A DNA stretch of 3,534 bases, from the IMG/VR virus record IMGVR_UViG_2648501165_000012. One strand, 5' to 3'. Origin of the DNA: a virus. Lineage: Duplodnaviria; Heunggongvirae; Uroviricota; Caudoviricetes. The translations under genes and the position numbers were made by a program. Shown here one piece after another: positions 414 to 2,081 of the stretch; the stretch's first letter is position 1; each line of letters starts with the position of its first letter. The notes below the pieces were generated by a model. That model was not told where the DNA came from. It was given only the letters and a program-made list of their open reading frames with translations, and ran no database searches.

Positions 414-484
414 AACATTTCAGCTGATGACCACCACGCTTTTTATTGACCATTTTGCACGCAAACTGGAAAACCTGGCGTCGT

Positions 485-499
485 CATCTATTCTTAAAG
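485..499 (+). promoter_or_regulatory. Putative sigma-S-type promoter -10 element for SdsR (TCTATTCTTAA)
   Basis: CTATTCT at 488-494 with C at the -13 position and TAA immediately downstream resembles the extended sigma-S -10 consensus (CTAYRCTTAA), positioned 6-7 nt upstream of the predicted sRNA 5' end near 500. No good -35 at correct spacing, which is typical for sigma-S promoters. Confidence 0.45.
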
Positions 500-603
500 G
501 GCAAGGCAACTAAGCCTGCATTAATGCCAACTTTTAGCGCACGGCTCTCTCCCAAGAGCCATTTCCCTGGACCGAATACAGGAATCGTATTCGGTCTCTT
601 TTT
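500..603 (+). ncRNA. sdsR: SdsR (RyeB) small regulatory RNA
   Basis: About 104 nt with no coding potential. Contains a perfect palindrome GCATTAATGC (519-528), a hairpin GGCTCT/AGAGCC (544-549 with 555-560), and a terminal intrinsic terminator: stem CCGAATAC (572-579) with GTATTCGG (587-594), then TCTCTTTTT (595-603). The sequence matches my recollection of E. coli SdsR/RyeB. 5' end approximate. Confidence 0.75.
581..603. other. Probable prophage attachment-site core (attL-type junction) overlapping the last ~23 bp of sdsR
   Basis: The host-like sRNA sequence ends at 603 and an integrase gene ends at 735, with arm-like elements between. As I recall, the last ~23 bp of ryeB were reported as an integration hot spot for prophages in Salmonella. 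The exact crossover point cannot be determined without an empty-site or attR sequence. Confidence 0.5.
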
Positions 604-615
604 AATTGTATTTAA

Positions 616-628
616 AATCAATTAGTTG
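616..628. promoter_or_regulatory. IHF-consensus site (AATCAAttagTTG), candidate H' site of the P' arm
   Basis: Exact match to WATCAANNNNTTR, located between the putative core (ending at 603) and the tandem repeats (from 637), as the H' site sits in the lambda attP P' arm. Confidence 0.4.
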
Positions 629-636
629 CAAGCGTC

Positions 637-668
637 TCCCCGAAATTCCCCGAAATTTACTCGAATTT
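637..668. repeat. Tandem direct repeats TCCCCGAAAT x2 plus a degenerate third copy (CGAATTT); candidate arm-type Int binding sites
   Basis: TCCCCGAAAT at 637-646 and 647-656 are identical and adjacent; CGAATTT at 662-668 is a partial third copy. The position, 70-130 bp from the int stop and 35-65 bp from the putative core, mirrors the lambda P'1-P'3 arm sites. Confidence 0.45.
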
Positions 669-734
669 CTGTATTCCGGTCTTTTTTGGTTATATCACAA
701 CCAATATACATTTAACAATCCATTTACGTTAAAA

Positions 735-1811
735 TCAGAGCAGTAAGTACGTTTTTTCTCGCTCATCAAGATACATTTTTGTTGTCTTCTCCGATGTGTG
801 ACCAAGTAGGCGCTGGGCAAATTCTTCTCCACATGTTTCTTTGTACAATCGTCCAGCCAGACTTCTGATCTCGTGAAAAGTTGGTGGGTTTTCACTGAAC
901 TGGATACCTGTTAATTTTCTGGCTGCGACAAATTTTTTTGTCAGGCCATCCGGGTGAATGCTGCCGTCAGGGCTGTTTTTTCTAATCCCGGCACTGATTA
1001 GATAATCTCCCCGGCTTACTAGGCGGCATCGTTCAACTACTGTACCAAGCCGTAGACCAGCGACAGGAAGGCTGAGTGACAGAGGGATAGCAATCATCAT
1101 TCCTGTCTTAATTTGCCTGATGTGGAGACGGTCATCATAAATATCACTGAACCGCATATTCGTTATGTCTTCGCGACGTTGTCCTGTTACAAGGGCTAAA
1201 TCCATAGCTAATGGGAACCATGCCGGAAGTTGATCTGCTGCCTCCCTGATGCAGTTGTATGTCTTTAGTTTCAGTCGTTCTCTTGTAACTACTATTTTCG
1301 GTGCTCTTGTTGGCGTGACTGGATTTTGAGATATACGTCCTTCAACAATGGCCTCGCGAAACATATCAGACAACACAGAACGCATTGATCCTGCCATTGT
1401 GTTTTTCCCTCCTTCAATCCACAAATCAAGAAACTCGGCAATATGGCGAGTGGTTATTTCTGTCAGTAAAATCTCTCCCAATTTTTCTTTTATTGTCTCC
1501 AGTTGATTTACCCGGATTTTATAAGTATTTCTGGACACTTTTCTCCTTATAAGAATCGTTTTGTAACGTTCAATCCAGTCTGCCATAGTAAATGAGTCGA
1601 ACCCTTTAAGCTTTTCAATTAAGGCAGCAGGAGAGTAGTTTTTGTATATATAATGATTTGCTTCAATTGCCTGCGCTACTGCATCTCTTCTTGAAATTTT
1701 ACCTAGTGTAAATTCTTCTTTCGTCAGAGGGTTGCGCCAGTAATATGCTTTGTCCCTCCTTCGATATGTTAAGTTTTTAGGCAAATTGGGATCGTATTTT
1801 TTCCGCTGCAT
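735..1811 (-). CDS. int: Lambda-family tyrosine integrase (phage integrase), 358 aa
   Basis: The ORF aligns along its whole length with lambda Int as I recall it, including the N-terminal arm-binding region ([27 protein letters not shown] versus lambda PPNLYIRNNGYYCYRDPRTGKEFGLG). Catalytic residues are all present: R in [10 protein letters not shown] in [10 protein letters not shown]-x-x-R in [11 protein letters not shown], and H and Y in [17 protein letters not shown]. Divergent from lambda Int, perhaps about half identical by eye. GGAG lies about 11 nt upstream of the ATG. Confidence 0.95.
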
Positions 1812-2058
1812 GTTTTAACTTCTCCAGTAACGGACTGTCTCTCCCTTGTCGCCCATTAGGCTGATGGTGTGTTATATCGGTATCAACCTTATTTGGGTTG
1901 ATATAGAAAGCCTCCGGAACCACCCTGTAACTCCTCCCGTGTAGTTCAGGTGCAGGATAAATGTTTCCATTCCTTGCCCATCGTCTCAGCGTTGATATTG
2001 ATGGTGGATTATCCGGATATCTGAGTTTCCCCCACGTTTTGAGTGTCACAAGATTCAT
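1777..2058 (-). CDS. xis: Excisionase (Xis), lambda-like; 3' end overlaps the int start by 35 bp
   Basis: MNLVTLKTWGKL...ISTLRRWARNGNIYPAPELHGRSYRV resembles lambda Xis (MYLTLQEW...SLETVRRWVRECRIFPPPVKDGREYLF). The start is chosen at the second ATG (2058), which has AGAGG 7 nt upstream; the 95-aa ORF-track version starts at 2064 with only a 1-nt spacer. An xis-int overlap is also seen in lambda. Confidence 0.8.
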   Translation of the reverse strand: MNLVTLKTWGKLRYPDNPPSISTLRRWARNGNIYPAPELHGRSYRVVPEAFYINPNKVDTDITHHQPNGRQGRDSPLLEKLKHAAEKIRSQFA

Positions 2059-2081
2059 TGCCATACCTCTTACGATATGAC

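Follow-up and report, generated by a model that had tools for sequence, protein, structure and literature searches.

A Putative Lambda-Type P' Arm with Three Phased Arm-Type Sites in a Lambdoid Prophage at the sdsR Terminator of Escherichia coli

Positions 616 to 668 of a 3,534-nucleotide stretch of viral DNA (IMG/VR record IMGVR_UViG_2648501165_000012; hereafter, the window) very probably represent the H' and P'1-to-P'3 module of an attachment site P' arm, which belongs to a lambdoid prophage inserted in the sdsR terminator and is seen here as attL; the reading is built on sequence comparison. In phage lambda, the heterobivalent integrase (Int) places its N-terminal domains on arm sites and its catalytic domains on core sites, with IHF-induced bends forming the bridge (PMC4880445). 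The element is solidly supported as a new example of a well-known type, and its recognition sequence was not found described: reviews on the sdsR hot spot mention the 23-bp core only, and no description of arm sites for sdsR-inserting integrases was found in the searchable literature, outside which the original 2008 hot-spot report lies.

Prophage and integration locus

The open reading frame listing, Rfam, and a 100% identical RefSeq genome placed yebY, SdsR/RyeA, the attL end of a lambdoid prophage, int, and xis in the window. On the E. coli chromosome side lies yebY (1 to 342); the SdsR (RyeB) small RNA gene (504 to 603, plus strand; Rfam RF00111, 116 bits) overlaps the antisense SraC/RyeA small RNA in its short Rfam form (463 to 607, minus strand; Rfam RF00101, 179 bits). 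Beyond int and xis, the window holds Rac/lambda-like early genes. Ten consecutive N's (2206 to 2215), inside a small open reading frame annotated as DUF1187 in the identical RefSeq genome, are masked or unresolved bases and are nonbiological.

With boundaries set from attL, attR, and the empty K-12 site, the prophage spans 44 kb in E. coli 13E0780, which matches the window at 100% identity; its left end is in the window and its other end adjoins pphA. At least 80% of the query was found in 228 of 5,426 complete E. coli genomes. The same target, the last 23 bp of ryeB/sdsR, is used by Salmonella elements such as PhiW104 and by other elements of the ryeA/ryeB (sraC/sdsR) hot spot, and lysogeny there replaces the 5' part of ryeA, according to the portion of PMC7380047 that summarizes Balbontin 2008. 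The present prophage displaces the 5' part of the native RyeA together with its promoter; in K-12, RyeA is annotated as starting 59 bp past the crossover, on the pphA side. The flanking gene 3' of sdsR differs between enterobacteria (PMC3333887).

The int gene (735 to 1811, minus strand) encodes a heterobivalent tyrosine integrase of 358 amino acids, and xis (1777 to 2064, minus strand) encodes an excisionase (Pfam Exc PF07825, 52 bits; annotated likewise in RefSeq). The original prediction had called the integrase diverged; domain and structure matches identify it as a lambda Int homologue. Int matched Arm-DNA-bind_1 (PF09003, 28.1 bits; cutoff, 22), Phage_int_M (PF22022), and Phage_integrase (PF00589) in Pfam, the lambda Int structures 1Z1B/5J0N over residues 8 to 353 (E = 1.5e-72), and the structure of the isolated lambda N-terminal domain, 1KJK (E = 3.9e-4). 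Identity to the Int proteins of lambda, HK022, HK97, and 434 was 39 to 41%, with HK022 Int (about 41%) the closest characterized integrase. Because Int keeps the arm-binding N-terminal domain, arm-type sites are expected somewhere in its attachment site. The share of invariant residues in the family was 0.37 in this domain versus 0.28 and 0.27 in the other two regions. Protein searches showed that the homologues form a large Enterobacterales clade spanning Salmonella, Citrobacter, Enterobacter, Serratia, Yersinia, and other genera.

Attachment site core

The crossover was delimited by aligning attB (K-12), attL (the window), attR (prophage locus L001), and attP, the last taken from a GenBank record with an Int 98% identical to that of the window ("Actinobacillus phage vB_Apl-pPE4"). 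Counted from the center described below, host and phage differ at -6 (T/A) and +6 (G/A), bracketing the exchange; since each difference stays with its own arm, the exchange is confined to 11 bp, ACAGGAATCGT, at 578 to 588. The bacterial attachment site is the SdsR terminator hairpin, which folds at -15.8 kcal/mol (z = -4.3) with a 7-nucleotide loop, AGGAAUC, and the exchanged stretch contains this loop, between perfectly symmetric stem halves, GACCGAATAC and GTATTCGGTC. The attL core thus read would run from 570 to 596, with the stem halves as core-type sites (B half-site GACCGAATAC, 570 to 579; C' half-site GTATTCGGTC, 587 to 596) and the loop as the probable overlap (AGGAATC, 580 to 586), centered on position 583.

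At window position 589 (+6), the terminator stem of SdsR in the lysogen carries the phage A (GTATTCGG), where the empty K-12 site and attR carry G (GTGTTCGG); lysogeny therefore alters one SdsR nucleotide, turning a G-U pair of the terminator stem into A-U. The attP record itself (PP818812.1) is labeled as infecting Actinobacillus pleuropneumoniae, and it combines the near-identical Int with an intact attP bearing the E. coli sdsR core. The assigned host seems doubtful, and vB_Apl-pPE4 may be an induced E. coli prophage.

P' arm: IHF site and repeats

Between the small RNA and int, the original prediction had described an exact IHF consensus site followed by two perfect adjacent 10-bp repeats and a degenerate third copy. 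The IHF site, AATCAATTAGTTG (616 to 628, plus strand), does match WATCAANNNNTTR exactly, is preceded on its 5' side by the A/T-rich TTGTATTTAA, and is the sole exact match on either strand of the window. Shuffled sequences contained 0.22 such matches on average and at least one in 38 of 200 cases (19%), so the match alone is nonsignificant. The two perfect copies of TCCCCGAAAT (637 to 646 and 647 to 656, plus strand) are likewise present, as the only tandem repeat that TRF reported in the window. As for the third copy, placed at 662 to 668 in that prediction, it is real, and these positions cover its conserved half only; in register with the others, it is TACTCGAATT at 658 to 667 (plus strand), with its CGAA at 662 to 665. 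It is conserved as well as the first two. The int stop codon lies 68 bp past this copy, and the array is at the prophage end beside the core and int.

Three of the four matches to YCGAAWT in the window fall within 28 bp on one strand. With both strands searched, this is the only place in the 50-kb region holding the whole prophage where at least three YCGAAW motifs occur within 30 bp, against 0.003 such clusters per 50 kb expected from block shuffles. Matches to the full 10-mer TCCCCGAAAT with one or two mismatches, elsewhere in the window and in the 50-kb prophage region, were no better than chance. The weight of the evidence therefore falls on the YCGAAW clustering and on the comparison with relatives, not on the 10-mer itself; the conserved unit is shorter than the 10-mer and was revealed only by comparing relatives.

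The array was also predicted to parallel the lambda P' arm in order and spacing, and here the agreement is within 1 bp throughout. Positions were counted from center 583 in the window and from the center of TTTATAC in lambda (NC_001416). The H' equivalent occupies +33 to +45 (lambda, +32 to +44), and the equivalents of P'1, P'2, and P'3 occupy +54 to +63 (+53 to +62), +64 to +73 (+63 to +72), and +75 to +84 (+74 to +83), respectively, with the P' sites spaced 10 and 11 bp apart in both phages. A shared offset of one base pair in all four features supports the reading as arm sites and also the position chosen for the overlap. The likeness to lambda attP extends to the succession of core, IHF site, three direct arm-type sites, and 3' end of int, in the same order, to a homologous Int with an arm-binding N-terminal domain, and to a lambda-type Xis. 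The repeat itself is, as had been noted, unlike the lambda arm-type consensus (YHCGAAWTT here versus C/AAGTCACTAT in lambda).

One helical turn past the third repeat, at 671 to 682 (plus strand; +88 to +99), lies GTATTCCGGTCT, a direct repeat of the C' half-site (compare GTATTCGGTCT at 587 to 597); an extra C'-like copy past P'3 is a difference from lambda. Nearly all relatives retain a similar sequence, TAT(T)C(C)NGTCT, among them the clade whose Int is 50% identical (and also L004, L005, L006, and most of L007 to L099). The third repeat and GTATTCCGGTCT were considered as a second terminator hairpin mimicking that of SdsR, and this candidate was rejected for the window: positions 655 to 695 fold at -2.6 kcal/mol on the plus strand (z = 0.18) and -2.7 kcal/mol on the minus strand (z = -1.1), and the stem is not conserved across related loci.

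The same folding values, no better than those of shuffled sequence on either strand, speak against the array being a transcriptional element, i.e., a promoter, operator, or terminator supplied by the phage beside sdsR/ryeA or downstream of int. Its position between the int stop codon and the small RNA would suit such an element, the P' arm does replace the native RyeA 5' region in lysogens, and RyeA and RyeB levels are reported to be altered by lysogeny at the site (in the part of PMC7380047 that cites Balbontin 2008). The far arm, however, carries the motif too, at a set distance from the core, which a promoter or terminator role leaves unexplained, and we hold a transcriptional function to be highly improbable.

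Related attachment regions

About 210 loci were gathered from IMG/VR and GenBank phages and reduced to 17 nonredundant P' arms and 46 nonredundant P arms; some of the retrieved P-core-P' sequences may come from the junctions of tandem prophages and not from true attP sites. Beside Int homologues of 48 to 100% identity, CGAA stood exactly at +58, +68, and +79 in 16 of the 17 P' arms, and almost nowhere else within 150 bp. The architecture described above is thus kept among related prophages, including Salmonella prophages with an Int 70 to 75% identical to that of the window. Across lineages, the repeat took the forms TCCCCGAAAT, TCCTCGAAAT, TGTCCGAAAT, TTTCCGAAAT, TACACGAAAA, and AACCCGAAAA, giving an arm consensus of YHCGAAWTT in which G is absent from the two positions 5' of CGAA; the base after the CGAA of P'3 is usually T, not A, in relatives. 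An IHF match with at most one mismatch was found at +32/+33 in 10 of the 17 nonredundant relatives, and in the clade with 50% Int identity the consensus at +33 was poor or absent. Where the flank was at least 1,300 nucleotides long, an int homologue accompanied three CGAA copies in 103 cases; the only case lacking one, L177, retains a fossil Int C terminus.

Within E. coli, the IHF sites of 40 distinct E. coli-type P' arms showed no change in ATCAA or TT, changes at all four N positions, and only G or A at the final R. Variation also fell in the T run that follows the core, in the H'-P'1 spacer, and in the opening bases of the repeats, and CCGAAAT and ACTCGAATT were free of variation, as would be seen if both the IHF site and the protein-binding repeat were functional.

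These comparisons bear on whether the repeats arose by chance or by slippage in A/T-rich DNA and have no function. Replication slippage could make two perfect 10-mers, and copy number in relatives ranges from 2 to 5. Against such an origin, CGAA is fixed at three positions despite differing flanks and integrases only 48 to 77% identical, a divergence that rules out recent copies of a single sequence, and the cluster is unique in 50 kb where 0.003 are expected. The comparative data already contradict a functionless duplication, which we consider extremely unlikely.

Among Salmonella-type P' arms, L219 carries five arm-repeat copies (TTTCCGAAAT four times and TTTTTCCGAATT), and L121, L183, and L210 carry only two; this variation suggests slippage in the array.

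The lone exception among the 17 P' arms, L025 (IMGVR_UViG_2728369554_000022), is an E. coli prophage with a clean deletion running from the core GTATTCGGTCTTTTTT to the core-like copy (the equivalent of window positions 598 to 682). The deletion takes the IHF site (H') and all three repeats and leaves int intact (99% identity). This may be a natural armless, possibly locked-in prophage.

P arm

The motif was also found near the other prophage end, where the original prediction had proposed to look for it and where its absence was to count as a refutation. In E. coli 13E0780, the sequence GACCTGAAAT-ATTCCCGAAAAT-TTCTCTAAAAA-ACTCGAAAAA makes up the P arm of attR, and an inverted copy of the IHF-like site comes next. 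Locus L001 has GACCTGAAAT ATTCCCGAAAAT TTCTCTAAAAA ACTCGAAAAAAATGG TAACTAATTGAATG, and within the last of these elements, TAACTAATTGAATG, 10 bp (AACTAATTGA) repeat the middle of H', TCAATTAGTT, in inverted orientation. On the strand that bears the P' sites, CCGAAA is found at -148 and TCGAAA at -127, and two degenerate copies occur, CTGAAA at -159 and CTAA at about -136. These copies are weaker than those of the P' arm, the middle one (CTAA) being degenerate.

Among relatives, CGAA was present between -156 and -118 in 45 of the 46 nonredundant P arms (at least three copies in 21, two in 20, one in 4, and none in 1), with same-strand peaks near -150, -138, and -127; the middle site reads CG[AT]CG in 19 arms. 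Among 47 clustered upstream flanks (one of them a host flank, not a P arm), 39 had an inverted IHF-like site at -120 to -109 and 23 had a second IHF-like site at -48. None of these motif and IHF-like positions requires alignment gaps. In the prophage studied here, the two IHF-like sites, each with one mismatch and on the opposite strand, are an H2-like site at -47 to -35 (lambda, -48 to -36) and an H1-like site at -114 to -102 (lambda, -126 to -114), the latter displaced by 12 bp relative to lambda.

That the motif occurs on both arms argues against its being bound by excisionase, or another accessory protein, instead of by the Int N-terminal domain. In favor of such binding, the prophage has an excisionase gene, and tandem direct repeats are the typical target of directionality factors, which in some phages, such as P2, bind the int-proximal arm. 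The count and geometry of the repeats, however, match the lambda Int sites P'1 to P'3 within 1 bp, the lambda Xis sites lie in the P arm only, at about -100 to -60, and a different conserved block, GCAATGGTAAGTRTT, holds the Xis-like position in related loci (-92 to -78). Binding by excisionase or an accessory factor is accordingly rated very unlikely, and the repeats are best read as Int arm-type sites.

The GCAATGGTAAGTRTT block of the P arm lies between the H1-like and H2-like sites, at the position of the Xis sites of lambda. Its counterpart in the prophage studied here is TGTAATAGTACGTGTT, at about 44620 to 44634 of L001. The block is a candidate excisionase binding region.

The two arms also help to judge whether the repeats could be additional core-type sites, derived from duplicated core sequence and recognized by the core-binding and catalytic domains of Int. 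The arm and core motifs are less unrelated than the two motifs of lambda: YHCGAAWTT and the core half-site GACCGAATAC have CCGAA/CGAA in common and differ elsewhere. CCGAA is common to the arm motif and GACCGAATAC, the CCGAAAT of the arm resembles the core half-site ACCGAATAC, a clear C' copy (GTATTCCGGTCT, 671 to 682) follows the repeats in phase, and one natural deletion (L025) fuses the core to the C'-like copy. Even so, CGAA alone is invariant, many P-arm sites reading CACGAA or CTCGAA; the rest of the core half-site (TAC) is absent from the repeats; their spacing is that of the lambda arm sites; and a highly conserved arm-binding N-terminal domain would be left without a target. An origin as core-type sites thus seems as improbable as binding by excisionase, and we retain the arm-type reading. 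The proposal that the repeats define the arm-site specificity of this integrase is supported, each computational check suggested with it having turned out favorably, with the likely recognition core being YHCGAAWTT and not the whole 10-mer.

Predicted recombination complex and comparison with lambda and HK022

We infer that the Int N-terminal domain and IHF bind these sites, and likewise how the sites would divide between integration and excision. The three phased repeats would serve as arm-type sites for the small N-terminal domain of Int. By analogy with lambda, IHF on AATCAATTAGTTG would bend the DNA, letting an Int protomer whose N-terminal domain is docked on a P' site put its catalytic domain on the core, i.e., on the stem halves GACCGAATAC and GTATTCGGTC around the loop AGGAATC. 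The arm sites about 120 to 160 bp away across the core, together with the H1-like and H2-like IHF sites and Xis, would supply the rest of the integrative and excisive complexes.

The P arm differs in layout from that of lambda, so the pattern of Int bridges may differ as well. In lambda, this arm has the order P1-H1-P2, with P2 inverted; here, three or four direct P-arm sites from about -159 to -122 all lie distal to H1, and there is no inverted P2. The bacterial sites differ too, being the terminator hairpin of a small RNA gene here and the gal-bio intergenic region in lambda. The attP of HK022 has a lambda-type layout and lambda-like arm sites, and differs in core specificity; in the present prophage, both arm and core sequences differ from those of HK022.

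The analysis yields YHCGAAWTT as an arm-site consensus open to testing, along with a complete attP map of a widespread integrase group. Marked on the map are the terminator-loop overlap, H' and the sites resembling H1 and H2, the three P' sites, and as many as three or four P sites. The map would aid the delimitation of prophages at the sdsR hot spot, the design of integration vectors with a specificity orthogonal to those of lambda and HK022, and the study of how N-terminal domain and arm-site specificity coevolve under a fixed lambda geometry. It leaves the understanding of how such integrases work unchanged and will not surprise specialists; its use lies in annotation and vector design.

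Other elements and a prophage fossil at the K-12 site

Some loci (L115, L118, L198, and L216) have the same core and a CGAA-type P arm, and their downstream flank, free of CGAA repeats, bears two strong IHF consensus sites and CCTGTTAC/TTCCTGTTC repeats. In L118 and L125 (a duplicate of L115), whose flanks are long enough for the search, no int homologue was detected over 1.8 kb. Either the host flank differs in these loci, or the stretch is the arm of some unrelated element that uses this hot spot.

The "empty" site of K-12 MG1655 (L221, 722 to 767, the pphA-sdsR spacer) is not truly empty. Translation of the spacer on the RyeA strand gives KTLDSDSRVCVMV, to be compared with KKYLDSRGQEYVMV and a stop at the Int C terminus of an intact relative, and the annotated RyeA start (L221, 767) comes directly after this fossil of the Int C terminus. 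Aligned directly with intact P' arms from the clade whose Int is 50% identical, the K-12 flank gave a nonsignificant score (20 versus a null of 16). K-12 against L177 scored 42 (null, 15.4 +/- 2.3), and L177 against the intact L140 scored 131 (null, 16.5 +/- 2.3), so the homology is visible only through the intermediate L177. One tentative reading, which we think rather doubtful, would take the P' arm beyond a recombination scaffold: the sdsR-pphA DNA of K-12 may be a decayed P' arm with the last codons of int, and the promoter and 5' end of RyeA a domesticated scar. If so, each new lysogen would swap the RyeA promoter and 5' end for a fresh arm bound by Int and IHF, and the swap would couple the prophage state to SdsR/RyeA regulation.
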